This document shows, piece after piece, positions 22,348 through 61,485 of a DNA stretch of 64,000 nt. The notes under the pieces are model-generated. The model searched no databases and was not told the origin of the DNA. It saw only the letters and a list, made by a program, of their open reading frames with translations. This DNA comes from Candidatus Rariloculaceae bacterium (GTDB lineage Bacteria; Pseudomonadota; Gammaproteobacteria; Steroidobacterales; Rariloculaceae). Location of the stretch: assembly GCA_965262365.1 (NCBI GenBank), contig OZ253541.1, positions 4,939,843-5,003,842 on the forward strand, given 5' to 3'. Positions within the stretch are counted from its first letter, which is position 1, and each line of letters opens with the position of its first letter. The position numbers and the translations under genes were made by a program.

Positions 22348-22673
22348 CTACAACCGCAACCCGCTCTCCCAGCACAACGCCTCGATCGCGATCCCGTAGT
22401 CCATTACCTCGCCCCGCCAGCCGCAGCGGGCTGTCTTCGCATCGATGTTCACACCACGGCGCTCGTTGTAAGTGGCCAGCGGCAATTCGCCCGGGTCTTT
22501 CGGCCCACGTTGAGCGGCTCGCCGTCAGCATTTTCCACCATACCGGCCTCGCTCAGATCCTCCTGCGCGATTTGCACCACCACCTGGTAGCGTTCCGCCG
22601 CCATCGCCCGCACCTTTGAATAGGAGAATCGCCCCTGCCGAAACGCTTCGCTGGTCTGCGGCAACGACTCCAA
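22348..22673 (-). pseudogene. multi-deletion remnant of a DUF222/HNH endonuclease gene
   Basis: LPQTSEAFRQGRFSYSKVRAMA is joined directly to ERYQVVVQI..GEPLNVGRKTRA. After a frameshift it continues ELPLATYNERRGVNIDAKTARCGWRGEVMDYGIAIEALCW. The HNH core itself is missing. Confidence 0.55.
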
Positions 22674-22723
22674 TGCCCGGGCTACCCGGACCTTCTCCCG
22701 CGCCGTGCATCCGTTGATACCGC

Positions 22724-22783
22724 ATCGCCAATTGAGCCACCGGGCTCCTCGCCGTAGAACGCGTTGCTCAGCAGCCGCCAGCG
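22724..22783 (-). repeat. short copy of the dispersed P-domain remnant
   Basis: CTCGCCGTAGAACGCGTTGCTCAGCAG.CGCCAGCG is shared with 59.7 kb and 51.6 kb. It encodes RRWRLLSNAFYGEEP on the minus strand. Confidence 0.5.
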
Positions 22784-27762: not shown

Positions 27763-27772
27763 TGCTCCAGGG

Positions 27773-27847
27773 TATCGAGTTCCGTCTTATCGAGTCCTGG
27801 CGAATCGAGTCTTGGCGAATGGGATTCTCGCGAATCGGGTTCGGGCG
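27773..27847. repeat. five imperfect 15-bp tandem repeats spanning the start of the next gene
   Basis: The five units are TATCGAGTTCCGTCT, TATCGAGTCCTGGCG, AATCGAGTCTTGGCG, AATGGGATTCTCGCG and AATCGGGTTCGGGCG. The ATG at 27819 lies in unit 4. Confidence 0.7.
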
Positions 27848-30438: not shown

Positions 30439-30456
30439 TGTGCCGGCGTCTCGTCC

Positions 30457-34163: not shown

Positions 34164-34293
34164 CGTTCCAATCTTAACGGACGAACAAGCCCCCGGGGGC
34201 CTCGATTCGTGCCGTGCGTTCCCTCAGGTCGGAGATATCGGAGCGGACCGCCCAGGCGTCGTACATCGCCGCGGAAACGATTGCGGCGGGTAT
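34164..34293. repeat. duplication junction scar between the two CRTAC1 copies
   Basis: 34164-34200 equals 36025-36062 (sequence just downstream of copy B). About 34201-34247 equals about 36150-36196 (3' end of the small membrane gene). About 34248-34275 equals 32176-32210 (inside the PAP2 gene). About 34276-34293 equals 32421-32455 (PAP2 gene start). Confidence 0.7.
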
Positions 34294-36024: not shown

Positions 36025-36126
36025 CGTTCCAATCTTAACGGACGAACAAGCCCCCGGGGGCTCTAGAATCGATTAACGAATTTCAGGCCATTGATCTCGC
36101 GGCTCAGCGCCGAAGGCGACCCTTGC

Positions 36127-44320: not shown

Positions 44321-46381
44321 ATGAAAGCCACGAGCCCATCCATGAAACCGGCATCCACCCGCATAGCAGCATTGCTCGCCCTTTCCCTCGCATCCGGCGT
44401 GACGCATGCGCAAGACGAGACGGCGACCTACACCATGACCTTCGAGGGGCTGTGGACGGCCGACGACATCACCGATGCCGGCATGCCGGGCGGTGCGCAC
44501 TTCACCGAAATGATCGGTGCCACGCACAATTCCGGCACGACGATATGGGTGTCCGGTGGCACGGCCAGCGCCGGAGTCGAGAATGTCGCCGAACTGGGAA
44601 GCGTGGGCACCCTGGTCAGCGAGATCGGTGGAAACGCCAACGCCGCCGGCGTCGTCCGGGCGGGGAGTGCCTTCATCAGTCCGACAGCGACGGTTTCCGG
44701 CACGTTCACCGCGAATTCAAGCCATCCCCTGGTCTCGGTCCTGTCCATGGTCGCTCCCACGCCGGACTGGTTCGTCGGTGTCTCCAACCTGAGACTGTAC
44801 GACAACGGTTGGCAGAATCGGGTTGTTGACCTTTATCCCTACGATGCGGGGACCGAGGAGGGTTCCGGCTGGTCGCTGAGCAACGCGGCCACAAGTCCGC
44901 AGGGCGTCATCACAAGCATCCGCAACACGGGCAGGTTCCGCGGCAACCCCATCGGCAGGCTCAGTTTTACGACCGATCAAACCACCGACAACGGGCAAAC
45001 CACCGGCGGGGGCACGGTGTCCCCTGTGGAGCCTCCGGTGACGATCGAGCCGCGTTCGATGCATTACACGGTCCCGTTGCTGGTTCCGTCGGGCACATCG
45101 GGCGGAGCCCTGGGGGTGCTGCGAATCCTCAACGCCACGGCCGAGACCGGACCGGTGGACATCTACGCCATCGACGATTTCGGTACCCGCAGCGGTCCGG
45201 CCACGTTCACGCTCGGCGCCTGGGCGGCGGCGGAGTTCACGGCCTCGGACCTGCGGTCCGGCAACGTCCTGCTGGACTTGGCCGGCGGCGTCGGCCCCGT
45301 GCGCGATGCGCGACTTCTGATCGGCACGGACCTGCGGATCGTGCCCCTGGCCTATGTCCGTGCCGCCGACGGCACGCTGAGCGCGATGCACGACACGGTG
45401 CGATCGGCGTCTGCGGACGGCTCGGGGCAGTACCGCTACGAAGTCCCGGTCTTCAATCCTTCCACCGAGACGATCCAGGCGAGCCGCCTGCGGTTGATCA
45501 ATCCGGGCGACGAGCAGGCCTCGGTCACGATCGGCGCACGCGACGACAGCGGTGCGGCGGCCACCGGCGGAGACGTGACATTGACGCTGGCGGCAGGCGC
45601 CGCAAAGACCCTGACGGCGCAGCAGCTCGAGGCCGGTGACAGCAGCATCGCGGGCCGGTTGGGCGCCGGGGTCGGCAAGTGGCGGCTGAGGGTGTCGTCG
45701 GATCGGCCTCTGCAGGTCGTGAACATGACCGCTTCCACCGCCGGGTACTGGAACAACCTTTCCACGACCGCGGTGGCCGGTGCGGCGCCGGCGGATCTGG
45801 CGGCGCTGAACGAGCGCGTCGTTGGCGAGAATGTCGTCTACGAGACGAACACCGGGCAATTCACGCTCAACGCCACGGAGGGCGGGCGGTTCACGGAGAC
45901 GGGCGACATCGACGGCGTCGCGACGAGCTTCATGGGCAGTTACGGCTATCGGGCAATCGGGCCCGATGCGGGCCGGCTGACGCTGATGTACGACGACGGC
46001 GATGCATGCCGGGCCAACTTTTACTTCTCGTCCCGGACGAACGGCTGGTTCGCATCGCACTGCACCGGCAGCGATGACCCGGACGGATTCTGGCTGGGTG
46101 GCAACTGGTCCATTACGGTGAACCGAGCTTCAACGGAGCCGGGTTCCCTTGGCGAGTGCTACGCGGGACTGCTTGTGGGCATCGGGCAGAGCTGCACGTA
46201 TCCCGGCACGACGGACGAGTTCAGCGTCAATGTACGGGGCCGCGGATCGTTCCTGACATTCCTGGCCGGTATCCGGATCCGGGTGAACAACCAGACGATC
46301 AACGGTCGTGTCTACGACTTCGAGGCCTCGCATCGGGGGGAAGGCGTGTGGCGGATCGACCGGGTGGCCGGCAGCACCTGA
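44321..46381 (+). CDS. secreted Spondin_N-domain protein with two copies of an unnamed module and a Cys-containing C-terminal module
   Basis: Signal peptide MKPASTRIAALLALSLASGVTHA (alternative ATG at 44342). YTMTFEGLW..GGAHFTEMIGATHN..VSVLSMVAPTPDWFVGVSNLRLYDNGWQ..YPYDAGTEEG is the spondin N-terminal pattern. Confidence 0.75.
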   Translation: MKATSPSMKPASTRIAALLALSLASGVTHAQDETATYTMTFEGLWTADDITDAGMPGGAHFTEMIGATHNSGTTIWVSGGTASAGVENVAELGSVGTLVSEIGGNANAAGVVRAGSAFISPTATVSGTFTANSSHPLVSVLSMVAPTPDWFVGVSNLRLYDNGWQNRVVDLYPYDAGTEEGSGWSLSNAATSPQGVITSIRNTGRFRGNPIGRLSFTTDQTTDNGQTTGGGTVSPVEPPVTIEPRSMHYTVPLLVPSGTSGGALGVLRILNATAETGPVDIYAIDDFGTRSGPATFTLGAWAAAEFTASDLRSGNVLLDLAGGVGPVRDARLLIGTDLRIVPLAYVRAADGTLSAMHDTVRSASADGSGQYRYEVPVFNPSTETIQASRLRLINPGDEQASVTIGARDDSGAAATGGDVTLTLAAGAAKTLTAQQLEAGDSSIAGRLGAGVGKWRLRVSSDRPLQVVNMTASTAGYWNNLSTTAVAGAAPADLAALNERVVGENVVYETNTGQFTLNATEGGRFTETGDIDGVATSFMGSYGYRAIGPDAGRLTLMYDDGDACRANFYFSSRTNGWFASHCTGSDDPDGFWLGGNWSITVNRASTEPGSLGECYAGLLVGIGQSCTYPGTTDEFSVNVRGRGSFLTFLAGIRIRVNNQTINGRVYDFEASHRGEGVWRIDRVAGST

Positions 46382-46487
46382 CCGCCAGCACGGCGCCGTT
46401 CCTCCTGCCTGCGCACGCTCGTTGGGCGCCGCCGTCTCTCCCCGATCCGGTCTGGAAGAACCCGATTGCTTTTCATACCATACCGCT

Positions 46488-48137
46488 GTGCACCCTTTGA
46501 AGCGTTCCTCACTTCGGATTGCCGCACTCGCGGCCCTTGTGCTGTGGGGTTCGGCCGCGCTGGCCGAGCACTACACGCTGCCGCTGTTCGTGACGTCGAC
46601 GACGGCCGGCACCACCCAGGGCGTGCTGCGGTTACTCAACGACACCGGGGAATCCGGCTCGGTCGAGATCCATGCCATCGACGATGCCGGCACTCGCACC
46701 GGTCCGGCCACCTTCACACTGAACGCCTGGACGGCGGTGGAATTCGATGCCTCGGAGCTTGCCTCCGGAAATGCCATGAAGGGGTTGTCCGAGGGACTGG
46801 GCACCCTGTCCGGCGATGTGCGTCTGGCGATCGAGACGGAGTTGCAGATCGTGCCCTCGGCGTATGTTCGCGCGGGCGACGGCACGCTCAGCGCGATGCA
46901 CGATACCGTGCGCGCCAGCGTCGCCGCAGGGGGAGGGGGCGGTTACAGGTACCTGGTGCCGATCTTCAATTCCGCGTCCGAGGTCACGCAGGTGAGCCGG
47001 TTGCGGTTGATCAATCCGGGGGCTCGGATCGCGTCCATCACCATTGAGGGCCGTGACGATACGGGCACCGCGGCCACCGGGGGAACCGTTCAACTCACGG
47101 TGCCGGGGGCGGCGCCGGTGGATCACGAGGCGTTCAACGAGCGCTTCGGCGCAAGCGGGATCGAATACCGGCGGGGCAGCGACCGCGTCACTTACATGAC
47201 ACCGGCGTCGGACCGGTTCACGGAGACGGGCGAGTCCGGCGGTGTCGCGTTTACCAACATGGGCAGCGATTGCTATCCGGGCCTATTGGTGCGGATCGAG
47301 GGGAGTTGTACGTATCCCGGCACGACCGACGAGTTTACCGTCAACGAGCGCGGAAGGGGCCGGTTCCTGACGTTTCTGGCCGGTATCCGGATCCGGGTCA
47401 ACAACGAGACCATCGACGGCCGTGTCTACGACTTCGAGGCCACGCACCAGGGTGACGGGGTATGGCGGATCGATCGGGTGGCCGGCATGACCGAGGTGCC
47501 GAGCTTCGGTGCGGCAGCGAATCCGGGGGACCGGACTTACATGGAAGGCGCCGCGATCGATCCGCTGACGCTGCCGGAGGCAACCGGCGGCAACGGCCGG
47601 CTGACGTACGGCCTGTCACCCGATGTACCCGGGTTGAGCTTCATCGCAAGCATGCGCCAGCTTACCGGCACGCCGTCGACGGCGGGCATTTACGACATGA
47701 CCTACACCGTGACCGATGCAGACGGCGACACCGATACGCTCGGCTTCACCATCACTGTCGAGGCAGCCGAAGACGAGGGTAATGGTGGCGGTGGCGGCGG
47801 TGGTGGCGGCACGGGTTCTGCGGTCACGGTGGAAAACGGGAGTTGCAGGGGTACGCGAACGGGTGCCTCAACTTTTAGCGTGCAAATGAGCGGTACCGTT
47901 CGGGCGCATCGTGCAGTGTCAAGCGTCCGGGTCCTTGGGTATGTAAACGGCTTGCTTCTGGGCGCAGACTCGCTGGGCGACATTCCGGCCGGAGGTACGA
48001 GGAACTTCTCCATCTCCGGCGACCTTACGATCACCGCGAACAGGATCTCCTCCTGCAACGCCGACATCCATTTCCTGCCCGCGGGCTCGGAACCAGGCGG
48101 CGGCTCGGTCAGCATTGACTTTGGTACGCAGCTTTAG
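46488..48137 (+). CDS. secreted protein: two unnamed modules + Cys module + He_PIG/cadherin-like Ig + Gly-run + C-terminal domain
   Basis: There is no ATG. A GTG at 46488 (or TTG at 46497) gives ..KRSSLRIAALAALVLWGSAALA. LTYGLSPDVPGLSFIASMRQLTGTPSTAGIYDMTYTVTDADGDTDTLGFTITV is He_PIG-like. Confidence 0.65.
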   Translation: MHPLKRSSLRIAALAALVLWGSAALAEHYTLPLFVTSTTAGTTQGVLRLLNDTGESGSVEIHAIDDAGTRTGPATFTLNAWTAVEFDASELASGNAMKGLSEGLGTLSGDVRLAIETELQIVPSAYVRAGDGTLSAMHDTVRASVAAGGGGGYRYLVPIFNSASEVTQVSRLRLINPGARIASITIEGRDDTGTAATGGTVQLTVPGAAPVDHEAFNERFGASGIEYRRGSDRVTYMTPASDRFTETGESGGVAFTNMGSDCYPGLLVRIEGSCTYPGTTDEFTVNERGRGRFLTFLAGIRIRVNNETIDGRVYDFEATHQGDGVWRIDRVAGMTEVPSFGAAANPGDRTYMEGAAIDPLTLPEATGGNGRLTYGLSPDVPGLSFIASMRQLTGTPSTAGIYDMTYTVTDADGDTDTLGFTITVEAAEDEGNGGGGGGGGGTGSAVTVENGSCRGTRTGASTFSVQMSGTVRAHRAVSSVRVLGYVNGLLLGADSLGDIPAGGTRNFSISGDLTITANRISSCNADIHFLPAGSEPGGGSVSIDFGTQL

Positions 48138-48176
48138 AAGTTGGCGCCGCCATCGATGCGGCACGTCACTCCGACG

Positions 48177-50212
48177 TCACTCCACCACCTGCAACGCTTC
48201 CCGCAAAACCTCCACGCCCTGTGCGTCCAGGATCACCGCCTGGCGTACCGGTCTCGTCGGGACCGGCGTGCGGGCCGCCCAACCCGCCTCGCCACCATCG
48301 CTGAGAACGTTGATGGACAGCGGCTCCCGGTAGAGCTCCACGCCGTCCCCGTCAAACAGGATCAGCGTAAACGGCCCTTCAGGATCTGGTGCTCTGGGCC
48401 CCCTGTCGGTGCTTTGGGCGTGCGCTGTGCCGTACCGCCCGATTGCGTAAACGGTTGCACGCCGAGCGTGCCCGTCGCTGAGCGGGTGCGACGCCGGTAG
48501 TTCAGTGCGTTTCGATAGTGATAGTCGGACACAAACGCATACTGGCCGCAATAGGACATCAGATCCGTGTGTCCCTCGTCATCGTTCGAAACGAATCGCC
48601 GCCAGTTCACATCCCATCCGGCGTGCGGCCCCAGCCCACCGTCAGCGTAGGGATAGCTGAAGTCGACAGATGTTGCGCTACAACCCGGCGTATGCTGCAA
48701 ACCGAAGTTGTGTCCGAATTCGTGAGGAATCACATTGGGCGAGGAGATCGTGCTCACAGCCACATTGCCGGACAATTCCGCGAGGCCGGCGGTTCGCGCA
48801 GCACGCGCATCGTCCCCCAGCCACGGCCAGATGAACACGCCGTGGTACCGGACATCAGGGATCGGGCATCGACAGTCGGCGGCTCGTCACCGGGAAAATA
48901 CAGGGGGATGAACGTAACCCGAAACGGCGACAGTTCGTCGCCGTATAACCGGATCGGCTCGCCCGTGTTGTCGTCCTCGTTCGTCTCGGCAAGTTCGTCG
49001 TCGGCGCGGCCTGGTCGAGACGTTCGGCAAGCACGCTGCCCTGGCTGTCCAGCACGCGTGTGATGACCAGGGGCGGCTCCGATACTTCATGGTCGATCCT
49101 CACCGCCAACGCCGCCCAACGGCCAGGGACCGGCCGCTGACGCTCCCGGGGGGCGCCTCGCCAGTCCCACTCCCACACCAGCGGTCCCTGATAGTAGGAA
49201 ACCGAATGGTGAGTTGCATTGCCGTTGTCCGCGGCGTTTCCCGACCAGACCGGTCGCATGCTGACTTGCGGGGGAGGTTCGAACCCGCGAATCGCATTTC
49301 CGTCGTGCCGCAACACAAGTTCGCGGCGCGCGATGCGCTCCCAAAGAGCCCGGGGCACAGTTCCCGTCAATCGATTGGATTGCACGTACAGTCCGCTCAA
49401 GAAGGCCGGATTTGCGAGTTCCGGAGGAATTGATCCGGTCAACCGATTGCCGGAGAGGTCCAGGGTCTGCAGGTTGGCCAGATTTCCGAGCTCCCAGGGA
49501 ATCGGCCCCGACAATCGCTGACCAGACCGGGGTTTCTATCCGGATCCGTCACATAGCTGCCGTCGCCGCACCGCTCGAGTGTGCGCGCCGTGTCCGGCTC
49601 GCTGTCACAGTGGTCGCTCACGCCATCGCCGTCGGCATCCTCCGGACCGCCGACGCACGGGTCCAGAAACCACGGTCGTGTCGAACTGGTGGACAGATTG
49701 GTCAGGTGCCCCGCGGTGTCTTCCACCAGGCTCATGACCTGGATGCCCCGATCGGCCTGAACGGCCAACCGCCACCCGCCTTCCCCCTCTCCGAAGCTCC
49801 CGCTCAGCCCCCTGGCGCCGTCCTGGAGGGATTCGGCGCTCAGGGATGTCGAGGCACCTGAGGCCAGGGAAAGGCTCACCGCTCCCTCCGGCGCCTCATC
49901 GCCGGCATCGTCCCATGCCCGGATCTCGATCTGCGCGGCCCCCTCGGACGGATTGATCAGCCGCACCGCACTGCCATCCGGGAGACCGCTGTCGGGCGCC
50001 AGCGGCTCGATATCCAGCGACGTGTCCAGGACGAGCCGCCAGTCGCCCTGACCGGTGCCGATGCGAACCATTCCTTCGCGCAAGGCATCGGATACCGATG
50101 GCAGCAGGGGAAGACGGTAGGTGTCCGCCGAGGTATCGAGCGGCATGAAGAACAAGAGCACCACCAGGGCTCCGACGCCTGTGTGTCGATGAAATGCTCT
50201 TTTTTCACCCAT
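48177..50212 (-). pseudogene. multi-frameshift gene: signal peptide + unnamed module + TSP3-like + plant-type LRR + HExxHxxGxxH zinc metalloprotease
   Basis: Four successive frames. 49439-50212: signal peptide, module, DADGDGVSDHCD. 48855-49514: LSGPIPWELGNLANLQTLDLSGNRLTGSIPPEL. A third frame around 48840-48990: FRVTFIPLYFPGDEPP. 48362-48838: VIPHEFGHNFGLQH. 48177-48551: C-terminal domain. Confidence 0.7.
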
Positions 50213-50262: not shown

Positions 50263-51200
50263 CTAATCGGCCGCGGCGGCGAGCCGTCTCAGGCCCGAGA
50301 AGTCCCGCTCGGTGACCGTCGCCGACGCCTTCACCTCCACCCCGACAATCCGCCCGCGCGTATCCTCGATCACGAAATCGACTTCGTTTCGCTCCTTGTC
50401 GCGAAAGTGCGAGAACTCATAACGATCCTCCGCCCAACTGGCCAACTTGAGCAGTTCGCCGAGTACGAAACTTTCCAGCAGCGGTCCCCAGGGCGTCCTG
50501 TCCCGGCGCAAGCGGTCCAGCGTTACGCCCCTCAGGGTGGCCAGCAACCCGGAATCGAGAAAATGAAGCTTCGGCGCCTTCACGAGGCGCTTAAGAGTGT
50601 TGCTGTACCACGGCGGCAACGTGTGCAATAGAAACAGTCCTTCGAGAATGCGGAGGTATTTTTGGGTCGTCACGTGATTCATCCCGAGCACCGCCCCGAA
50701 ACCGGAGTAGTTGACGAGTCCACCGGAATGCTCGGCCACCACTCGCAGCAGTCCGGGCATCAAGCCGAGCTGTGCGATTTGAGCGATCTCGCGGATGTCG
50801 CGCTGAACAATGGCCTCAATGTAGTCCCTGTGCCAATCCTGTCGGCGCCGCCATCCCGACCGGCTCAGCGCCTCCGGATACCCGCCCGCGAGCACGGTCT
50901 CGATCAGGTCATCGCCGAGTACCGCCGTGGTAGCCGTTGTGGCATCGCCGGAAAATGTACGTGCCAGGAAGTGCGATGGGGTTTCTCGTATCTCCGACTG
51001 GGCCAGGGGAAGGAGCCGAATGATTGCCATGCGCCCCGCGAGTGAGTCCGCGACACGTGGGAGCGTCATGAGGTTTGCCGAGCCGGTAAGCAGATAGCGA
51101 CCGGGCCGTGGGTCGGCGTCCACGGCGGCCTTGATCGCCAGCATCAGGTCGGGCGCGCCGATGCGGCGATTGGCGCAGAAGAACTTCCGACGTTTCAGTG
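50263..51200 (-). pseudogene. 5'-truncated AAA ATPase with DUF4143
   Basis: APDLMLAIKAAVDADPRPGRYLLTGSANLMTL...EVDFVIEDTRGRIVGVEVKASATV matches the DUF4143 ATPase family. The Walker A-containing N-terminal roughly 110 aa are absent and are replaced by a Sel1 fragment. Confidence 0.6.
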
Positions 51201-51214
51201 TCGCCCGCCGCACA

Positions 51215-51262
51215 GTCTCGCCGTGGCGTACTACAACGGATACGGTGTACCTCAGGACCTGG
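51215..51262 (+). repeat. Sel1-repeat gene fragment
   Basis: TCTCGCCGTGGCGTACTACAACGGATACGGTGTACCTCAGGACC matches 61268-61312 of the intact Sel1 gene (VAYYNG.GV). Confidence 0.6.
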
Positions 51263-51311
51263 AACACCATCGTATACACCCAATCACGCTAACGGGCCTT
51301 GTAGACGACCT

Positions 51312-51455
51312 TCAGGGCTCCATGACCCTGACGCGCGAATCCCCGGCCAGGTCGATCAACCGGCGGTCAAATGTCAGCAATGCCTCGCATCTTGCGGCCG
51401 CGCCGAGATGCAACGCGCCCGCGAAATCCATACCCTGCTCCGCGGGAAGGCCGCC
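51312..51455 (-). pseudogene. PIN/VapC C-terminal remnant
   Basis: GMDFAGALHLGAAARCEALLTFDRRLIDLAGDSRVRVMEP resembles a VapC C-terminus (..DAL.LA.A......L.T.D..L). No N-terminal half is present. Confidence 0.4.
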
Positions 51456-51487
51456 CAATTCAGAGCGAAGGTCGCCTATATCTCCGC

Positions 51488-51693
51488 CGGATGACTCCCG
51501 TAGTAGATGCGCAACCGCCAGGCATCCAGATTGCCCGTGTCGTCCTCGGCGCCGTCGAAGACCTCGATCTGCCAATCGCCGTTCGGGTCCTCGCCGCAGA
51601 ACGCGTTGCTCAACAGGCGCCAGCGAATCTGCTCGAGATCGTTCACGGCATGGAGAGCGCCAAATGCGGCCATTGCTTCGAGTGCATGATTGA
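51488..51693 (-). pseudogene. proprotein-convertase P-domain-like remnant, dispersed repeat copy A
   Basis: The minus strand encodes HALEAMAAFGALHAVNDLEQIRWRLLSNAFCGEDPNGDWQIEVFDGAEDDTGNLDAWRLRIYYGSHP. It is near-identical at DNA level to 59624-59960, apart from a roughly 140-bp internal deletion. Confidence 0.6.
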
Positions 51694-51800
51694 GTTCCAT
51701 GGGTGAGATAGCCAATGGTTCAATTATGCTATGTAATAATCGTGTTAATTCACTCTGTTTCGCAGAACGACAGAAGTCTGCAGACTTGGGAGGGAGACCC

Positions 51801-53699
51801 ATGAGCAATGGCCGCTGCACGCGTGGAAATCCGTGGGCGCGTATCTTTGTCGCGCTTTATGTCCTTGTTCTGGCGTACGGCTGTTCGGCGCCCCAGGTCA
51901 TCGATGTGGATTTCAGCGTTCTCGACCCCGAGCAACAGGCGGTGGAAGAGAACGCGCTGATACGTCCGGGCTCCACGTTGACACTGAGCAGCATTACCGC
52001 CATCAGCAGCGACGGCACGCAAAGCACCCTGGCGGAGTCCGACGAGTACATCGTGACGGTTCTGGGTGGAACCTATGACGCCGCGACCCGCGAAGTGCAT
52101 TTCAGCGAAGTCCCCGCCGACGTGCCTCCGCAAGGCTACGAAGTGGCGATCCAGCACGCTGACGGTGTCGGCACGGTCATGCGTTTCACACCGGACTTTG
52201 CCGGCATCCATGGGCCGGAGCCGGGCGATGTGGTGTCCTTCGAAGTGAACCTGGAGTGGAGTCGGGACGGCCAGAGGTATTCCATTGGCGAAGGCACGCC
52301 GCTGATCCCCGGCGAAGCCTACAGCCTTCATGCGGTCGCCCGGGATACCCTGGGGCGCACGTTCGAAACCGGCAGCGACAGCAACACGATTCCCGCCGAG
52401 CGGCTCGCCACGACGCTGGCAAACCTGACCGCCGGTGGTGACGACGGGTCCATGCTGGTCGCAGGCAGCGGCGCACCAGGCCAGGAATACCGTATGGAAG
52501 TGCGTTACGGCGGCGACGAGAGGCACGCCATAATCCTCGAATTCCCCCTGGATCCCGCCATCTCCCAGGGCCCGCAACCGCAAGCCGTTACCCGCGTGGA
52601 AATCCTCGGCGAACTGAGCGATGGCGCACCCATCCGACCCGGCGATGCAAAGCCGCTGCAGGTGCGGGTAGCGGACATCCGCGGCCGAACGTGGCTGCTC
52701 GATATGGATGGCGGCGGTTCCCACGCGGACAATCAATACCGGCTGCCGCCTTCGCGCCTCCAGGTTCTGGTGGAGAACGGGGTCTACGACCAGGGCGCCG
52801 GGCGGGTTCAATTCGACGCCGACGCCGAAGCCATGCTGGAAATGACCTACGGGTTGGAGGTGAGATACGACTCGGACCCGTTGCTGGCCGACGCAAGGGA
52901 ATACCAGCCGGACTTCCTGGCCGTCGTACCGCTCATGGAAACGGACGAACTTGTCTACGCGGGACAGGATGTTCGCGAGGGGCAGTCGGGCCAGAGTGGC
53001 CAGAACGGCGCCCGCGGCAACGACACCAACCGCGAGATGGGCCGCGGAGGCGGCGGTCGCAACGGCGGCAACGGCACCAACGGTCAGACGGGCGCCCGGG
53101 GCGCCGTTGGCCCGAGTCTGCGTGTGGTCGCCCGCGAGGTGCGCACCCTGGACTCGGAGACGCGTCTGGCGCTGTTTGAAGTGCGCGTGCCGGGCGCGCC
53201 GCCGGAGTACTACCTCCGCGCAATGGACGATTCCCCGGTCACTATCGTCAGCCGCGGCGGCAGCGGCGGCACCGGCGGCGATGGCGGCGATGCCTATTTC
53301 TCGGGTTCCGGCGGCGATGGCGGTGCCGCGGGCAGCGGCGGTGACGGCGGTGACGGCGGCAATGGCGGCAACGTCGTATTGATCCTTGCTTCCTTCGACC
53401 TGGAAGGCGTGTTCGTTCTGGACAGCCGGGGCGGCGGTGGGGGCCGGGGAGGCGCCGAGGGCGTTGCTGGCCGTCCCGGCAGTCCGGGCTCGGTGGGCAA
53501 CTGGAATGAGGCCGATATCCCCAGGGATCAGGTCATGCCGGAAGTCGGCGCGTACGGCAATGAAGGCAACATCGGCCACACTGGGCGTGACGGATTCGAC
53601 GGTCAACCGGGCACTGTGGAGTTCATTGTCGAGGAAGAACAGGCGGGGGCGCTGGTGAGGCGCACGCCGGTGGGCATACAGACCGTGATACTCTTTTGA
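51801..53699 (+). CDS. lipoprotein with three beta-rich repeats and a collagen-like/Gly-rich C-terminal third
   Basis: RBS GGGAGGGAG precedes the ATG at 51801. The signal RIFVALYVLVLAYGC has a lipobox. The Gly-rich tail includes GQSGQSGQNGARGND..GGNGTNGQTGARGAVGP..GGSGGTGGDGGDAYFSGSGGDGGAAGSGGDGGDGGNGGNVVLIL..GGGGGRGGAEGVAGRPGSPGS. Confidence 0.65.
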   Translation: MSNGRCTRGNPWARIFVALYVLVLAYGCSAPQVIDVDFSVLDPEQQAVEENALIRPGSTLTLSSITAISSDGTQSTLAESDEYIVTVLGGTYDAATREVHFSEVPADVPPQGYEVAIQHADGVGTVMRFTPDFAGIHGPEPGDVVSFEVNLEWSRDGQRYSIGEGTPLIPGEAYSLHAVARDTLGRTFETGSDSNTIPAERLATTLANLTAGGDDGSMLVAGSGAPGQEYRMEVRYGGDERHAIILEFPLDPAISQGPQPQAVTRVEILGELSDGAPIRPGDAKPLQVRVADIRGRTWLLDMDGGGSHADNQYRLPPSRLQVLVENGVYDQGAGRVQFDADAEAMLEMTYGLEVRYDSDPLLADAREYQPDFLAVVPLMETDELVYAGQDVREGQSGQSGQNGARGNDTNREMGRGGGGRNGGNGTNGQTGARGAVGPSLRVVAREVRTLDSETRLALFEVRVPGAPPEYYLRAMDDSPVTIVSRGGSGGTGGDGGDAYFSGSGGDGGAAGSGGDGGDGGNGGNVVLILASFDLEGVFVLDSRGGGGGRGGAEGVAGRPGSPGSVGNWNEADIPRDQVMPEVGAYGNEGNIGHTGRDGFDGQPGTVEFIVEEEQAGALVRRTPVGIQTVILF

Positions 53700-53702
53700 C
53701 GC

Positions 53703-55025
53703 ATGAATTCCACCAGAGAAGATCAGGCCGCACCTGACCGGGGCCGAGGGCACGAACACGGTTTCAAGGCTTCCCGCCTTCGTCAGAAGGCGCTGGCCAT
53801 ATTCACCGTCGTGGTAATTTCGGCGGTGTGTTTTCTCGTTTATATCAGTGCGGACGTGACAGTCCGGCGTCTGGTCAACGAAGCTCAAACCGCCCTGCCG
53901 GAAGGCGATCTGAGGGCGGTGGATCTGCAAGCCGCCGCAACGAGATTTCAACGCGCGCTGGAAATCAGACCCAGTGACGCCTACTTGCTGGATGCCGCGG
54001 ACTTGCTGCAACAGCGCGTCGCCGAGCAGGTGGGCCGCGACATCGCGCGGAGCGAACTGGACCTGGCGGATAAAATCCTCGCCGCCGCGAGCGAATCCTG
54101 GTCCGACATCGAGAGGTTTGGCGACACCGGCGAGTTGCGAAGCGCCCTGGACAGCGCGTGGCTGCAACAGCAGATTCGCGAGGAAGTAGCCGGGTTTGTC
54201 GCCGCCGCGCTGGAGGTGTTGGCCGGCGGCGTGACGGACGGCGAACGCATCGACGACATCAGGGCGGCGTTGCAGCAATTGCGCCAGGCCCTCGATCTGG
54301 ACCCCGACAACGACCGCGCTCGAACGCTGCGCGACGACGCTCGCCTCGACCTTATGGCAGCAGCCCGCCGCGAGCTCAAGGCAGGCAACCAGGATCGGGC
54401 GGAGGACTTGCTGGAAGTGGCCCAGGACGAGTGGCGCGACGACGATGCCATCGCAGAGCTGCGCGATGAACTGAGGCAGCTTTTCGACGAACTTTCCGCG
54501 GCCTCGGAACTGCGCCGGCTGATCGACCTTGGCGAACAGCGGCTTGCCGCGGACAACCTGTCCACGCCCACGGGCGACAGCGCGGTGGATTACTTCCGCC
54601 GGGCGTTGGCGCTGGATTCCGACAACGAGCAGGCCGCCGCGGGACTGTCGCAATTGGCCGACCGCTACGCGCTCCTGGGTTGGGATGCCGTTGAACGCGG
54701 CGACATTGCCGAGTCGCGCCGACTTCTGTCGAAGCTCACCGAAGTGGCGCCGCAACATCCCGAGGCCGGCCCGCTGCAAGCGCGAATCGAGGCGGCGGAG
54801 GAAACCGAGCAAGTCGAGCAGGAGCAACAGGCGGCCCGGGAAGAACCTTCCCAGGCGCCTCCACCCGGTCCCGTGATTGCCGACGACGAAGAAGGCCGCC
54901 TCTGGTCGGAGGTGATGAGCCTGTGCGACGAGACTCAGCTACGCCGCTACATCAACGGGTATCCCGCCGGCCGGTATATCGACGAAGCCTGGAGCAGGCT
55001 CTCGGCCTGCCGGGCAGGCCGCTGA
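53703..55025 (+). CDS. membrane-anchored TPR-like/helical-repeat protein
   Basis: Starts 4 nt after the preceding stop. It has one TM (ALAIFTVVVISAVCFLVYISA), then helical repeats (FQRALEIRPSDAYLL, LRQALDLDPDNDRA, YFRRALALDSDNEQA) and a C-terminal ..LRRYINGYPAGRYIDEAWSRL. Confidence 0.6.
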   Translation: MNSTREDQAAPDRGRGHEHGFKASRLRQKALAIFTVVVISAVCFLVYISADVTVRRLVNEAQTALPEGDLRAVDLQAAATRFQRALEIRPSDAYLLDAADLLQQRVAEQVGRDIARSELDLADKILAAASESWSDIERFGDTGELRSALDSAWLQQQIREEVAGFVAAALEVLAGGVTDGERIDDIRAALQQLRQALDLDPDNDRARTLRDDARLDLMAAARRELKAGNQDRAEDLLEVAQDEWRDDDAIAELRDELRQLFDELSAASELRRLIDLGEQRLAADNLSTPTGDSAVDYFRRALALDSDNEQAAAGLSQLADRYALLGWDAVERGDIAESRRLLSKLTEVAPQHPEAGPLQARIEAAEETEQVEQEQQAAREEPSQAPPPGPVIADDEEGRLWSEVMSLCDETQLRRYINGYPAGRYIDEAWSRLSACRAGR

Positions 55026-55069
55026 CAGGAGGTGACAGATCGACAGGGGCTTGCTTTCTTCGATGCGCG

Positions 55070-55262
55070 GCATAGCGGCACTACTTGCACTTTCCCTCGC
55101 CGTCGGCGTTCGCTTTCGAATTGCCGAACAGCTCTCCGCTTCGGACCTTGTCACTCGGGCGCCGACTCGACCGACATTGGCATGAACCGCGGCATGATCG
55201 CCAAAATGGCCCGCCGATGCGCAGATTTGCGCGACGCGCGCGCCACACGCTGGCACGTGCGC
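55070..55262 (+). pseudogene. collinear mini-copy of the Sel1 gene locus (three fused segments)
   Basis: 55070-55108 matches 60578-60612 (signal-peptide region). 55106-55153 matches 61373-61425 (3' end: RFRIAEQLSASDLVT). 55154-55262 matches 61498-61600 (downstream non-coding DNA). Confidence 0.65.
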
Positions 55263-55410
55263 TGGCCGAAACCGGTCGATGAAATCCGTGCCGTCGCGCA
55301 CCAATGATCACCCGCGCGCATATCACCCGCCGTGCCTTGCATCCTTTCGGATCGTGCCGCAAACAGGTACCCGGCCTTCGGACAGTTTCTTCCACCGGCT
55401 TGCGCCCGCT

Positions 55411-55529
55411 GCATGATTGATTTCCTGTGTGATGCGGAAGAACGCAGTGAGAGGATCCGGCAAGCTCGAACTTGAGCAGTCGGCAGCGAAATCATGTTCG
55501 TTGGTCGAATCGCTACCGGTCCGCGGCGG
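55411..55529 (-). repeat. dispersed repeat copy C (segment adjoining the P-domain remnant)
   Basis: GCATGATTGATTTCCTGTGTGATGCGG.A.AACGCAGTGAGAGGATCCGGCAAGCTCGAACTTGAGC..TCGGCAGCGAAATCATGTTCGTTG matches 59958-60076. Confidence 0.65.
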
Positions 55530-55610
55530 GCAGTACGGAGCCTCCCACCGGAGCTTATGGCCTCTCTTGCAGGGACGGTTGAATGTCCAGGCTCCCGAGA
55601 ACAACCGGCG

Positions 55611-55909
55611 ATGAAACCGGCACCAAAGAGCATAGCGGCAATACTGGCACTTTCCCTCGCCGCCGCCGCGAGTGCCCAGACCCTTGACCTGGGTGTCGCG
55701 AAGTTCACGGCCGGCGACTATGCGGGCGCGCTTCGGGACCTTGTGCCCTTGGCCGAGCAGGGCAGCTCAACGGCCATGAAGACGCGGCTGGCGCCCGCTA
55801 TCGGATTGCCGAACAACTCTCACCGTCGGACCTTGTCATCGCCCAACAGATCGCGCAGCAGTGTCTCGAGCAGGGTTACGAATACTGCGTTAGACAAGAT
55901 GAGAGATAA
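55611..55909 (+). pseudogene. Sel1-repeat gene with all repeats deleted and a frame change
   Basis: MKPAPKSIAAILALSLAAAASAQTLDLGVAKFTAGDYAGALRDLVPLAEQGSSTA parallels the intact gene N-terminus. It then jumps, out of frame, to GHEDAAGARYRIAEQLSPSDLVIAQQIAQQCLEQGYEYCV, the equivalent of the intact gene's last about 40 aa. Confidence 0.7.
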
Positions 55910-55947
55910 CGACCGATTCGAGACAAACTGGAAGTTTGCGCCCCAGG

Positions 55948-56475
55948 TCAATCCGTCAGCAGGTGGCCATGGCAGTTCAGTTGCGCGTCGACGGCAAGAA
56001 ACGCCGCGCCGCAGCGTTCCAACCAATTCAGGCCGTCGGCTGGCTGTTTAAGTAACGCGATCGAGGCAATGGAACCGGCAACGACCGCTTGCCCCGCGGC
56101 GACGCTGACGCTCAAGAGGCCTTCTACCGGCCAGCCGGTGCGAGGATCGACCAGGGTTCATCGTCGGGTTGCGGTCCGACGATGCAAATGTCGCCGCCCA
56201 GATTGACCAGTCCGTGACGGATACCGGCCTTTCTGGCGATGATTGCCGTCGCATCGGCGACGTATTCCTTCACCACGCCGCCGAAATCCAGTTCCATCCC
56301 CTCCAGGGGCAGATAGATTTGCTTCTCGGAATACTCCACCTTCAACCAGCCGACCCTGGCCAGGCAGGCGTCCAATTCGCTCTGTCGAGGCAAAGTCGTG
56401 CGCCGTCGATGCCACACCCGGCGGAACACTCCTGATGTGATGTCAAACAGCCCGTCGCTCTGTTCGTAGCACACT
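55948..56475 (-). pseudogene. ApbE (FAD:protein FMN transferase) fragment, 5'-truncated and frameshifted
   Basis: FDITSGVF..ELDACLARVGWLKVEY..MELDFGGVVKEYVADATAIIARKAGIRHGLVNLGGDICIVG..EPW. After a frame change near 56125 it continues SVSVAAGQAVVAGSIASIALLKQPADGLNWLERCGAAFLAVD. Confidence 0.6.
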
Positions 56476-56830
56476 GACGCGTACTTCTCGCTGCCCATGT
56501 AACGGTCGACGCTCATGGTCAGCGCCCATCGCGGTTGCTGGACGATCCCCTTGAGGCCGACGGTCGCCGCGCCATAGGCGGACAAGCGGAGATCGCTGGA
56601 CTGGCTGAGGTCGGGCGGCAGAATGAAATTGTCGATGGGCAGGTAGAAGTCGGCGGCGGACTGACTGTAATAGCGAAGATTCGGGACGATCTGGAACCGG
56701 GCGCCGATGTTCTGGTACCAGGACGTGTGCAGCGTGTGCGAGGCAATTCCCCAGTCGTCGTCAAAGTAGCGGTAATCCAGGTGCAGGGCGCCGTCTCGAG
56801 CGACCTTACCGTTGTCAGAAATCCCGAAGA
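56476..56830 (-). pseudogene. DUF3570 outer-membrane protein fragment fused to the ApbE fragment
   Basis: LHLDYRYFDDDWGIASHTLHTSWYQNIGARFQIVPNLRYYSQSAADFY matches the DUF3570 pattern (YRYY.DDWGI.SHT...RYYSQ.AADFY). It lacks both of its own ends. Confidence 0.5.
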
Positions 56831-58565
56831 CGGCACGCAAGACTATATCGACACCAACAAGAGAGCACTGCAAGCTCTGGTCGAGGAGAAGGGTGCGGGC
56901 CACATCCTGAACAAGGTTCAGGCGATCGGCGGTCACGGTGGCGGACCTGTGGTGAAACAAGGCACGTTTGAATTCGTCAATCTCGAGCGCTTCCTCCGCG
57001 GCGAAGAAAGTGGCTCAACGGCACCCGCGATCACCGTGGACAACCTCTTCGAAGGCGTCACCATGGAGTCGCCGGCGCGAACTCTGTGGCGTGCCGCCAT
57101 TCTGTTTGCAGGGCGACTGCCGACTCAGGACGAGCTCGACGCCGTGCAGTACGGCCTGGGATCCAAGATGCGAGAAATTATTCGCGGCTACATGGACGGC
57201 CCTGCGTTCCACCAATTCCTGATCGATGGAGCCAATGATCGGTTGCTGACGGACCGAGGTCTCGAACACCGAGTCATCGATCTCGGTTCGCACGAATTCG
57301 TAGCGCTGAACAGGAAGTTCATCGAGGCCCTGAGATCGGCAGCGCGTCGTGGATACGAAGAACGTTGGGAAGATCCTCAGTACCGTGACTGGGAACGTGC
57401 CATTTCGGAAGGGGCCGCCCGAGCTCCGATCGAGCTTATCGCCCGTGTGGTCGAGAACGATCTACATTACAAAGAGATTCTGACGGCCAACTACATCATG
57501 GCGAATCCGAAAATGGCGGAAGCCTATGGTGCCTCGACCGAATTCGAAAATACAAATGACATCGACGAATTCAAGCCATCGACGATTGTGGACTACTACC
57601 GAAAGGACGATTCGAAGATAATCTCCAACGATCCAGAGTTTGACGTCAATGTTGTGATCAACTCGGGGAACTTGCAAACCACCTATCCGCACGCAGGTAT
57701 TCTGAACACGACATCCTTCCTGCAGCGCTACCCCTCGACGGCCACGAACCGCAACAGGGCACGTTCGCGCTGGACTTACTATCACTTCCTCGGTTGGGAT
57801 GTAGAAAAGTCGACGCAGCGCACCACGGATGCCGCGATTCTGGCCGACACCGATAACCCGACCATGTACAACCCGGCCTGTACGCACTGTCACGAGGCGC
57901 TCGGGCAATAGCAATACGTTTGAGATCATCCACTGTCCCGTAGTGGTGCCGGTGGACATTCCAAGCGACGACCATTACGAGGTACAGGTGGAAGTCTATG
58001 TCGGCTATAACTACTCCGACGAGCCCGATCAACCGGCCACAATGGCCGTGTGGGTGGCTGTACCGCAGTGGCACCAATAGAGCTACCCCAAGACGACACC
58101 TACACGATCGAGGTCGTCGCTTATCAGCGTCGCCTCGGAGACGAATCGGCGCGGATGGTGGTGGTCGTCGAATCGGACGATGGGGGTGCCGCCAGCGAAG
58201 CTGTCATTCGCGACAAGCTGGCCGACCTGCACTGGAAGCTGTTCGGTGCCGAAGTAGAGCCCGACTCACCCGATGTGAACGAAGCCTATGAATTGTTCTT
58301 CAAGGTGTGGTCCACGAAGCGCCGCACGGAATCCGGTCATTTCCATGACTCCGGATTCCGCTGCGACCCAGATGACAAGACTTACTACGATGAATTTTTC
58401 GATTCGATCGCCAGCTACAACGAATGGGGACATCCTGAGTGGGACAATCAGCGTATCGATCAGTTCAATGAAAACCTGAACATGACCGACTCGGTGCAGG
58501 TAGTCAGGGCATGGTCGGTCGTTCTGGCTTTCCTGATGACCGACTCTCGGTACTTTTATTTGTAG
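56827..58565 (+). pseudogene. large CxxCH-motif protein of the type that partners DUF1501 (DUF1549/1553- or DUF1588-like), 5'-truncated and broken into three frames
   Basis: FAGRLPTQDELDAV, NDRLLTDR, HAGILNTTSFLQRYPSTATNRNRARSRWTYYHFLG, NPACTHCHEALGQ, then a stop at 57909-57911. Two further ORF pieces follow (57829-58080 and 58050-58565), the last ending ..VLAFLMTDSRYFYL just before the DUF1501 gene. Confidence 0.5.
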
Positions 58566-58575
58566 GGGGTCTGGA

Positions 58576-59600
58576 ATGAAGCGCCGAACTTTTATTCAAG
58601 GCATGCTGGCGGCAGGCGCGGCGGGAGGATTTCGAGTGCCGTTCGCCAATGCGGCCGATTACACCGGGAAACTGTTCGTGTTTGCCCAGGCAATGGGCGG
58701 TTGGGACGTGACGAGTCTGTGCGACCCAAAGGTCAATCAGCCTGACGAGAAAAAGATCAACTATTGGGCGGATAGCGATGAGGTCGGCGAGGCCGGAAAC
58801 ATCCTCTACGCGCCCTTTGCGAACAACAAGACCTTCTTTGACAAGTATTATCAGCGAATGCTGGTGATCAACGGTGTCGATGCCCGGACCAATTCACACG
58901 ACACCGGCGTCATACACAACTGGAGCGGCCGGATCGGGGAAGGGTATCCGACAACCACGGCGCTGATGGCCGCACACAACGGACCGGCACTGGCCATGCC
59001 GTATCTTGCGTTTGACGGCTATTCGAATCCGGCTGGCGTCATCACGTATACGCGATTGGACGATACTGAGAAAATTCAGAACATCGCACTACCGGCGGCA
59101 AGGGGAGGGGACCCGACAGACCGGCCCTACTACAGCGGTTTGGATTGGCAGTTCCTGACTCAATACCGCAATGCGCGTGCGGCACGTCTGGCTGGAGCGC
59201 CCAATCTCATGCCCAGGGCAGAAGACAATCGGGCTCTTTACTCAATAGCTCTGCAGCCCGAAGCCACGGAAGGGTTGCGAGAATTCGCGGACCAGGTTCC
59301 TCACCATGACGACAGTCTTACCCACATCAAGAGGCAAGCTCAACTGGCCGTCGTCGCGTTCAAGGTCGGCGTGGCCGTCAGTGCGGACCTGGCCGAGGGT
59401 GGATTCGATACCCACGATGACCATGATCTTGAGCAAGGGCAGCGTATGGCCGAGTTCACTGACGGTGTGGACTACCTCTGGGACCAGGCTGAAAGCCACG
59501 GTATCGCCGACCGGCTGGTGGTGGTGATGGGCTCCGACTTTTCTCGCACCAACCACTACAACGACGATAACGGCAAGGACCACTGGCCTTACGGGCAGTT
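58576..59600 (+). pseudogene. DUF1501 (sulfatase-fold, Tat-signal) protein, 3'-truncated by the dispersed repeat
   Basis: MKRRTFIQGMLAAGAAGG (twin-arginine type), GGFDTHDDHD, VVVMGSDFSRTNHYNDDNGKDHWP. Family similarity ends about 59600, where repeat copy B begins; the ORF then reads through antisense repeat sequence. Confidence 0.6.
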
Positions 59601-59623
59601 CCTCATTCTTCCCCCTCTTCCGC

Positions 59624-60076
59624 GGGATGACTCCCATAGTAGATGCGCAACCGCCACGCATCCAGATTGCCCGTGTCGTCCGCGGCGCCGTCGAAGCCCT
59701 CGATCTGCCAATCGCCGTTCGGGCCCTCGCCGTAGAACGCGTTGCTCAGCAGGCGCCAGCGAATCTGCTCGATATCGTTCACGGCCAGCGTCTCGGAGTC
59801 TTCGGAAAAAATGGCGCCCGCAACGAGGCGGCCTCCGACCGCGCGCCGCGTTCCAGAACCAGTTGGTTGAGAACGTCGAAGTCGTCAAGCTCCACGCGAA
59901 TTGTGGGCGATACGACAAGCGTCATGGAGAGCGCCATATGCGGCCATTGCTTCGAGTGCATGATTGATTTCCTGTGTGATGCGGGACAACGCAGTGAGAG
60001 GATCCGGCAAGCTCGAACTTGAGCGCTCGGCAGCGAAATCATGTTCGTTGTTCGAATCGCTACCGGTCTGCGGCGG
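59624..60076 (-). pseudogene. P-domain-like remnant, dispersed repeat copy B (longest copy)
   Basis: The minus strand, in three frames, reads ...SLPDPLTALSRITQEINHALEAMAAYGAL / MTLVVSPTIRVELDDFDVLNQLVLERG / ETLAVNDIEQIRWRLLSNAFYGEGPNGDWQIEGFDGAADDTGNLDAWRLRIYYGSHP. The last has the F.GE..NG.W.L...D...D.G.L..W.L pattern. Confidence 0.65.
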
Positions 60077-60280
60077 ACTATAGCGCACGGCATCGGAAAA
60101 TTTGCGGAGCCGGACTTGATCCTGGCGTAATACCCGCAATGCGCCGACACCGTCAGAGCGCCTAGACCAATGATCAGGGCTACGCATACTGCGTCAGATA
60201 GGGAACCCGACCAGTCCGGTCTGGATGAATCCGATTGATTGTCATACCATGTCAGCCACGAGCCTACCCGCGTTAGTAGG

Positions 60281-60470
60281 AGACTGTACGACAACGGTTG
60301 GCAGAATCGGGTCGTTGACCTTTGTCCCTACGATGCCGGGACCGAGCCGGTGGATATCTACGCCATCGACGATTCCGGTACCCGTATCGGTTCGGCCACC
60401 TTCACGCTCGGCGCCTCGGCGGCGGCGGAGACGTGGCATCGTTCCTGACGTTCCTGGCCGATATCGACAG
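60281..60470 (+). pseudogene. collinear three-segment mini-copy of the Spondin_N/module gene
   Basis: 60281-60345 matches 44793-44858 (RLYDNGWQNRVVDL.PYDAGTE). 60346-60428 matches 45149-45231 (PVDIYAIDD.GTR.G.ATFTLGA.AAAE). About 60435-60470 matches about 46243-46278 (SFLTFLA). The frame is kept across the first junction only. Confidence 0.75.
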
Positions 60471-60555
60471 GCTCTCCCTGCATCGGCGGAATCCCGACCT
60501 CCGTTGTAAAATCGCGCATGGATTGCGTTTACCAGGCTCCCGAGAACAACCAACG

Positions 60556-61485
60556 ATGAAACCGGCATTCAAGTGTATAGCGGCACTACTCGCACTTTCC
60601 CTCGCCGTCGCCGTGAGTGCCCAGACCATGGACCAGGGTATTGCGAAGTTCAGCAGCGGCGACTATGAGGGAGCGCTCCGGGATCTGATGCCCTTCGCCG
60701 AACAGGGCAGCTCGACGGCGCAGTACCTTGTCGGTGCGATTTACGCCAACGGCCAGGGCGTCGTGCGCGACAATGTGGCCGCGGCGAGCTGGATAAGGCG
60801 CGCCGCGGAGCAGGAACATGCTCGCGCCCAGTTCTATCTCGGGCAAATGCATGAGCGGGGTCAGGGCGTCGACGCGGACCACGCCGAAGCCGCCCGGTGG
60901 TATGGGCGGGCTGCGTACCTGGGAGACGCGCAGGCGCAGTACAGGCTAGGAACGATGCGGGAGCTGGGGCTTGGCGTCGATCGGGATTTGGGTGAAGCAG
61001 CGAATTTGTACCGCAGCGCCGCCGAGCAGGACCATGCGGACGCTCAGGAGAGCCTCGGCGTGATGTACACCACCGGACAGGGAGTCGACCGGCATTACGG
61101 CGATGCAGTTATCTGGTTCGGCCGGGCGGCCGAGCAGGGGCACGCCCGGGCCCAATTCAGTCTCGGCGTGATGTACGCGGACGGACTGGGCGTCGAGCCG
61201 GACAGCGAGCAGGCGATCTACTGGTATCGTCGAGCCGCCGAGCAGGGGCACGCCCGGGCCCAATTCAATCTCGGCGTGGCGTACTACAACGGAGACGGTG
61301 TACGTAGGGACCCGGTACTTGCGTATGTCTGGGCCAATGTTGCGGCGTCCAGCGGTCATGAAGACGCTGCCGGCGTTCGCTTTCGAATTGCCGAACAGCT
61401 CTCCGCTTCGGACCTTGTCACTGCCCAACAGATTGTGCTCCAGTGCCGCCAGCAGGGTCACGAATACTGCGTCACGTTGCGCTGA
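60556..61485 (+). CDS. secreted Sel1-repeat (SLR) protein, intact
   Basis: Signal peptide MKPAFKCIAALLALSLAVAVSAQ, followed by about 7 Sel1 units (AAEQGHARAQFSLGVMYADGLGVEPDSEQAIYWYRRAAEQGHARAQFNLGVAYYNGDGV...). Confidence 0.85.
   Translation: MKPAFKCIAALLALSLAVAVSAQTMDQGIAKFSSGDYEGALRDLMPFAEQGSSTAQYLVGAIYANGQGVVRDNVAAASWIRRAAEQEHARAQFYLGQMHERGQGVDADHAEAARWYGRAAYLGDAQAQYRLGTMRELGLGVDRDLGEAANLYRSAAEQDHADAQESLGVMYTTGQGVDRHYGDAVIWFGRAAEQGHARAQFSLGVMYADGLGVEPDSEQAIYWYRRAAEQGHARAQFNLGVAYYNGDGVRRDPVLAYVWANVAASSGHEDAAGVRFRIAEQLSASDLVTAQQIVLQCRQQGHEYCVTLR

Follow-up and report, generated by a model that had tools for sequence, protein, structure and literature searches.

Near one end of the 64,000-nucleotide stretch of DNA analysed here (the window) lies an intact Sel1-repeat gene (60556..61485, + strand), which encodes six Sel1 repeats and a signal peptide (Pfam Sel1, E 2.5e-56; 309 aa in the public gene call), and directly 5' of this gene there is a short stretch with similarity to a gene located 14 kb away. 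The latter gene (44321..46381, + strand) is also intact and combines a Spondin_N domain (Pfam Spond_N, E 1.7e-35; PF06468, 123.4 bits versus a cut-off of 24) with a module of ~350 aa. This module (HYTVPLLVP...) is present at 45061-46373, again at 46568-47487, and in the related locus L004 at 5646-9239; it resembles DUF5719 only weakly and cannot be assigned firmly to a Pfam family, and in hundreds of metagenomic proteins it is 65-75 % identical, which is unusually conserved given its varied fusion partners (Spondin_N, He_PIG, CARDB, LRR, cadherin and M66 peptidase, with the LRR/M66 protein carrying two tandem copies). A search with the protein encoded by 44321-46381 gave 467 relatives, and the loci of the closest ones were compared with the window; among named genomes, the closest (74-75 % protein identity) are those of Candidatus Rariloculaceae and other gammaproteobacterial MAGs.

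The sequence-only reading of the window had described a 190-bp collinear match in three pieces to the gene at 44321-46381, and in BLASTN searches and an ungapped side-by-side comparison, in which the borders of the pieces are sharp, both the coordinates and the order of these pieces hold. The count of three does not, as there is also a 5'UTR-type piece, the region of a start codon and an island of 5 bp, and all parts are found in the order of the intact gene: 5'UTR, start codon, P1, P2, 5-bp island and P3. The most upstream part is P0 (60215..60250, + strand), a 5'UTR-type piece of a lost gene which matches 46446-46481 at 32/36 positions; within the window and the strain loci this motif occurs only here and in the spacer preceding the downstream paralogue (gene 2). 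A retained ribosome-binding region, ATG and first codons follow at 60243..60266 (+ strand), with ATACCAT and an 11-bp exact match of the GCCACGAGCC type to 44326-44336. The ATG is at 60249-60251 and continues with the codons TCA GCC ACG AGC C.., so that the region reads ATACCAT-G-TCA-GCCACGAGCC, and the gene at 44321-46381 opens with ATACCATCC-ATG-AAA-GCCACGAGCC in the window and L004 alike. The start of the L004 orthologue and that of the window gene are matched equally well, and from this parallel it is clear that the ribosome-binding region, start codon and first codons of a gene of this family survive here.

Downstream of the start codon, P1 (60280..60346, + strand) represents the end of the Spondin_N domain (LRLYDNGWQNRVVDLCPYDAGTE), and is identical to 44791-44857 at 64/67 positions, including a perfect run of 33 bp, and to the L004 orthologue at 66/67 positions (BLASTN E 1e-25 for 60100-60700 versus the window). 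P2 represents the start of the ~350-aa module (PVDIYAIDDSGTRIGSATFTLGASAAAE); its unambiguous part (60347..60430, + strand) has 77/84 matches to 45152-45235, the extended match of 60335-60430 to 45140-45235 has 86/96 (BLASTN E 4e-32), and identity to gene 2 (46660-46741) is 79 %. P3 (60438..60465, + strand) is a C-terminal segment (SFLTFLA) with 26/28 matches to 46246-46273 (BLASTN E 5e-6) and 27/28 to L004. Overall, P1, P2 and P3 are 95 % identical to the L004 orthologue, and the 76 bp between P3 and the ribosome-binding region of the Sel1 gene were similar to nothing found.

Both main junctions carry short repeats. Junction 1 (60335..60346, + strand) is an imperfect 12-bp direct-repeat zone (GCCGGGACCGAG versus GCCGAGACCGGA), in which the likeness of GACCGAG and CCGAGACCGG proposed earlier is present, and here 294 bp of the intact gene are absent in frame, with the translation continuous from YDAGTE to PVDIYAIDD, also as proposed. 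Junction 2 (60423..60435, + strand) consists of the 8-bp perfect repeat CGGCGGAG and the 5-bp island ACGTG. The repeat closes P2 and occurs in the intact gene at both 45228-45235 and 45565-45572, and ACGTG derives from 45573-45577; the 7 bp previously taken as filler at this junction are thus part of a 13-bp exact match to 45565-45577, which is located between P2 and P3 and is collinear with the other pieces. The 1010 bp of source sequence absent here (the earlier estimates were ~1 kb, and ~290 bp for junction 1) would then have been removed by two successive deletions of ~337 and ~668 bp, the first of them between the perfect 8-bp repeats. Taken together, the structure records at least four or five separate deletions and does not resemble a designed three-part unit.

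The frame that is preserved across junction 1 is lost further downstream, with P3 shifted by +1 relative to P1 and P2 and the source frame ending at a TGA inside P3. The ORF running from the retained ATG (60249-60509) uses a non-ancestral frame, has a GC3 of 0.55 versus 0.74-0.83 in real genes, and gave no Pfam match. By frame, GC3 and Pfam test the reading frame is destroyed and a coding signal is absent. A comparison of 59.4-60.7 kb with known RNA families gave a single match far under threshold (E 0.79).

The Sel1 protein adjoining the relic is also encoded on L001, a 1.56-Mb contig of an ENA metagenome assembly which over 12.3 kb matches the window at 99.56 % identity, and its relic does not differ from that of the window. 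The relics in L003, L005 and L012 differ only at positions 60385 and 60392, both of which are C in these loci and T in the window. Not counting the window, five independent assemblies, representing at least three samples, carry the relic; a 33-mer spanning junction 1 had no match when scanned against JGI metagenome contigs. This distribution bears on the question of whether the junctions could be assembly chimeras or a repeat misassembly, which would be conceivable with a metagenome assembly as source (contig names such as ctg60364_18x_l). As five contigs, assembled independently from several samples at 4x-30x coverage, have the same structure with unique flanks, such a chimera is excluded for practical purposes; furthermore the pieces are 5-10 % off the intact gene, a difference that would not arise if reads from that gene had been joined chimerically. 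There was no partly decayed intermediate of the relic among the loci compared. One candidate for such an intermediate, P0050 (97 % identical, 433 aa), was rejected, as it represents a normal gene frameshifted in a 4x contig on which the M16 peptidase is also split.

Within L001, an IS66-family transposase (1-1135) replaces the sequence at 50583-51717 of the window, and a 27-bp G+C-rich indel between the two, after window position 53267, lies inside an ORF of 669 aa. This ORF belongs to a block of 8.2 kb (51707-59919) which is present in the window and L001 and absent from L003, L005 and L012, and which contains the 669-aa gene, a TPR gene, a Sel1 relic, a short Sel1 paralogue, and ApbE, PSD4/DUF1592 and DUF1501-like fragments. 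The flanks of the block (51483-51706 and 59619-59979) are direct repeats with 94.6 % identity that differ by an indel of 134 bp, and the block reflects either a strain-specific deletion via recombination of these repeats or a duplicative insertion. A 43-bp repeat, apparently coding on the minus strand, is found at 51585-51625, 59720-59761 and 22741-22783 with 90-95 % identity. The stretch at 59570-59758 has 54 % protein identity to 8109-8297 of L009, just 3' of the Spondin_N match in that locus (6001-7962).

The position of the relic corresponds to that of a full-length gene in relatives. In L004, which is ~95 % identical to the window in conserved genes, an intact orthologue of 778 aa is followed after 23 bp by Sel1, and in L006 (81 % protein identity) a single opposite-strand MarR gene lies between the orthologue and Sel1. 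The order common to L004 and L007 is gene 2, the LRR/M66 peptidase gene and the Spondin_N gene, and the window has the Spondin_N gene, gene 2, LRR/M66 fragments, AAA_14/DUF4143, other sequence, the relic and Sel1; comparison of these orders places the relic at the position of the full gene, between LRR/M66 and Sel1. This is among several observations that strongly support one of the two possibilities raised in the sequence-only reading, plain deletional decay of a paralogue; the others are the kept 5'UTR and start codon, the multiple deletions, the microhomology at some of the junctions, the broken frame, an age close to that of the split from L004 and the similar decay of adjoining genes.

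There are three observations that complicate the identity of the lost gene. The P0 piece resembles the spacer before gene 2, and not the 5'UTR that the Spondin_N gene has in the window or in L004. Second, the Sel1 genes of the window (60556-61485) and L004 (12361-13287) have a dS of 0.42 with dN/dS 0.29, versus a dS of 0.08-0.14 for neighbouring genes, which suggests paralogue replacement or import of an allele; the two Sel1 genes may therefore not be strict orthologues, which weakens the argument from synteny. Third, a paralogous stretch at 55410-55675 has the flanks of the relic, with 57 unrelated bp instead of the relic itself, and this comparison alone would equally fit an insertion at 60.1-60.5 kb. 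In view of these points the lost gene may have been a recombinant, a duplicate or a distinct paralogue rather than simply an original copy of the L004 type. Histories of tandem duplication versus Campbell-type insertion were considered, and no scenario fitted both the P0 5'UTR and the kept first codons.

The absence of the 455-bp stretch between the same flanks in the 55.4-kb locus, together with the joining of collinear pieces at micro- or imperfect homology, could also be explained by a templated patchwork insertion, a single event in which successive template switches on the gene or its mRNA gave a patchwork that was inserted upstream of Sel1, either by break-induced replication with microhomology jumps or as a reverse-transcribed copy. 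We consider this very unlikely. The 5'UTR piece is missing from the putative template gene, yet the first codons of that gene are present; the derived bases of the present gene are absent from the relic; and relatives have an intact gene at this position. The adjoining LRR/M66 gene is equally multi-piece where a full gene is demonstrably ancestral, and the ORFs examined at ~43-64 kb showed no evident reverse transcriptase.

The absence of derived bases comes from an age comparison in which the relic was set against the gene of every strain and against four to five orthologues from outgroups. Four changes are derived in the window gene, and all are absent from the relic, which in addition keeps one ancestral base (CACC) that is changed in the genes of both the window and L004. 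The relic lacking these derived bases indicates that 44321-46381 is a relative and not the donor, and the description of the relic as a mini-copy from its source has to be dropped in favour of one that treats the intact gene as the nearest relative to have survived, itself changed since the lineages parted. The number of changes private to the relic ranges from 6 (L003) to 8 (window) in 179 bp, or 3.4-4.5 %, which are small numbers but agree with neutral evolution, given that synonymous divergence per lineage is 0.04-0.07 for the window and L004. Judged by these substitutions, the time over which the relic has drifted would be about equal to the separation of the window and L004, arguing against recent copying from the gene at a distance of 14 kb.

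The second possibility raised in the sequence-only reading was that of a silent donor cassette, a sequence reserve with no promoter, which gene conversion would copy into the expressed Spondin_N/module gene so as to vary a surface protein. The homologous secreted protein gene lies 14 kb off in the same orientation, the 33-bp perfect run in P1 would in principle suffice for RecA-dependent exchange, and the clustered strain differences in P2 (60385 and 60392) carry the base of the intact gene in L003, L005 and L012. Despite this the cassette is extremely unlikely, and it failed every test that was run. The relic is single-copy in the 64-kb window and the 10-kb flanks of related loci, and none of the 26 variable sites of the intact gene (window, L002, L003 and L005) falls within P1-P3; the shared segments are not enriched for variable sequence. 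The strain comparison called for in the earlier reading gave no trace of recombination between relic and full gene, with the bases private to the relic (TGT at 60323-5, GAT at 60353-5, ATC at 60386-8, TCG at 60416-8 and GAT at 60459-61) absent from the intact gene in all strains compared. With regard to the two clustered sites, the T versus G mismatch at 60387, between 60385 and 60392, was left unconverted; this excludes a conversion tract from the gene, and two C-to-T mutations account for the sites. Gene conversion at 60385/60392 was also dismissed on the grounds that the required haplotype is present in neither the intact gene nor gene 2.

The conservation of the family likewise speaks against a cassette, as it is uniform, with a mean identity of 76 % over 40 full-length homologues and no hypervariable block; in these 40 homologues P1 is at the 98th, P2 at the 34th and P3 at the 56th percentile of conservation. 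Unlike donor cassettes, the relic bears its own start codon and 5'UTR, and four other genes in the window have collapsed likewise without any expression-site partner. A related proposal is that the relic is active nevertheless, either as a one-cassette conversion donor through its near-perfect runs of 33 bp and more, or as a direct repeat, through loss of the 14 kb that separate it from the gene, which would fuse the 5' part of the gene to the Sel1 leader, and to this we attach a similarly minute probability. If such exchange or fusion did take place, it would result in population-level variation of a secreted protein, maybe a mediator of host interaction; this gammaproteobacterial clade may be sponge-associated, which we presume from the isolate name of one MAG.

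Next to the relic, four further genes in the window were found to be collapsed. The LRR/M66 peptidase pseudogene (48100..50192, - strand) consists of eight collinear segments separated by seven deletions when compared with the intact genes of ~1200 aa in L004 and L007. Its breakpoints were placed using the overlaps of BLAST segments, as global MAFFT alignment was too noisy at 81 % identity, and the deletions are of ~90-690 bp and change the frame. Most junctions are at direct repeats of 4-14 bp, often imperfect, with one junction, between the two tandem module copies of the gene, being a 13-bp perfect repeat. The other three had been noted before as having the same architecture, and all are true relics. 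A DUF222/HNH endonuclease relic (22357-22757, - strand) has residues 71-122 and 461-501 of a protein of ~500 aa, the two blocks being just 122 bp apart, and this protein is intact in L004 and L007. The PLP-dependent decarboxylase relic (12811-13116, - strand; Pfam E 1.6e-4) is a 101-aa ORF made from two fragments, in which the catalytic HK motif reads HE, and it is directly adjoined by an IS4-type DDE transposase gene (13329-15116, + strand). For the HNH and decarboxylase relics the source gene lies outside the window. Finally, the Sel1 relic (55070-55248) has three pieces, namely the signal peptide, C-terminus and 3' flank of the 60556-61485 gene, and is followed by a short Sel1 paralogue of 146 aa (55410-56051) with the same upstream flank as the full Sel1 gene. 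With these four examples, the collapse of dispensable genes by multiple deletions is seen to be general in this region of the genome, in keeping with the deletion bias known from bacterial pseudogenes.

Elsewhere in the region, an ORF at 58576-59967 (+ strand) with similarity to DUF1501 matches only ~115/390 profile positions and has a low GC3, and is uncalled in the public annotation, which has small minus-strand ORFs at this place; this is probably one more gene fragment whose ORF has been extended spuriously. Exact look-ups of this ORF and of the 686-aa version of the Spondin_N/module protein returned no record, because gene calls differ. There are also two duplicated gene pairs with ~89-90 % identity, 26499-27777 / 29175-30453 and the tandem pair 32412-34209 / 34273-36071, for the latter of which the 576-aa counterpart in L003 has FG-GAP/UnbV_ASPIC domains. 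The two pairs are further evidence of recent duplication in the region.

Based on its anatomy, its syntenic position, its age, its presence in several strains and the similar decay of adjoining genes, the stretch 60215-60465 is very probably an in-situ pseudogene relic, formed by deletional decay of a paralogue. With regard to the order of events, the mechanism of deletion and the status of the lost copy as original or duplicate, we infer that a full-length Spondin_N/module gene with its own 5'UTR and start codon was once located directly upstream of Sel1, and may have become dispensable, with the intact copy surviving at 44321-46381. It would then have lost ~90 % of its length in a minimum of four or five internal deletions that arose independently. 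Several of these lie between short direct repeats, a pattern that either replication slippage or microhomology-mediated end joining would fit. Point mutations would have accumulated at a roughly neutral rate, and the remnant would now be a non-coding spacer before Sel1.

As a supplement to decay, and not as an alternative to it, the 5' end of the dead gene (promoter, 5'UTR and start codon) could now serve as promoter or leader of Sel1, which would formerly have been the second gene of a two-gene operon. Co-transcription would fit the Sel1 start at 23 bp after the upstream gene in L004, no + strand terminator is predicted between relic and Sel1, and the extreme 5' end has been kept while ~90 % of the body was lost. 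Furthermore, the Sel1 unit is homologous to its counterparts in L004, in L006 and at 55.4 kb only from 14-22 bp before the ATG onward, and hence any promoter must be further upstream. Against this, no σ70-type promoter is predicted anywhere in 59.5-61.7 kb, and survival of the 5' end may be due to chance, with the strains being too similar for its conservation to be informative. On balance we regard such a role as unlikely.

The relic is real but ordinary, being a product of bacterial pseudogene decay of an already known kind. It marks the former place of a Spondin_N/module gene and has little import beyond annotation, and the case for a system resembling antigenic variation at this locus is removed. 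ORFs that run over such relics should not be counted as genes by gene callers. More generally, the locus is rich in secreted repeat proteins (Sel1, TPR, LRR, Ig-like and Calx-beta) and has a fast turnover, via duplication, rearrangement and microhomology-associated deletion, and the presence of this relic and four other collapsed relics in 64 kb points to a sizeable pseudogene load in an uncultured gammaproteobacterium of 5-6 Mb.

Three known systems were compared with the relic. As in the TR/VR pair of diversity-generating retroelements, part of a surface-protein gene is repeated as a short stretch outside that gene, whereas the repeat in the relic is discontinuous, and the neighbouring ORFs checked gave no sign of a reverse transcriptase. 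Such a retroelement was rejected, as the mismatches (T/C, C/T, T/G, C/G and G/A) are at mixed positions and are not adenine-specific. The systems of Anaplasma msp2/p44, Neisseria pilS and Borrelia vls also have truncated, unexpressed copies of a surface-protein gene beside the full-length gene on the replicon, where many cassettes feed the variable region of an expression site (PMC2789410). While these systems have 5 to ~100 cassettes, a hypervariable core between conserved ends, and cassette sequence in the expression-site variants, the relic is a single copy with a kept start codon, with no hypervariable region and no transfer in any strain. In bacterial pseudogenes, both a deletion bias and microhomology-flanked deletions are established (PMC6054270, PMC2817411, PMC2916853). 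The deletion-eroded pseudogenes of the Ca. Burkholderia leaf-nodule symbionts, Sodalis and Salmonella are, like the relic, non-functional remnants of genes which are intact in relatives, with multiple deletions, some of them flanked by microhomology; they accumulate substitutions approximately neutrally (PMC6054270, PMC2817411, PMC2916853), with which the small number of changes in the relic is compatible. The relic differs from these in being unusually far collapsed, to ~9 % of the gene in 5-6 islands that are 90-98 % identical, and in being located in a large genome (contigs of 5-6 Mb) which is not obviously that of a reduced endosymbiont.
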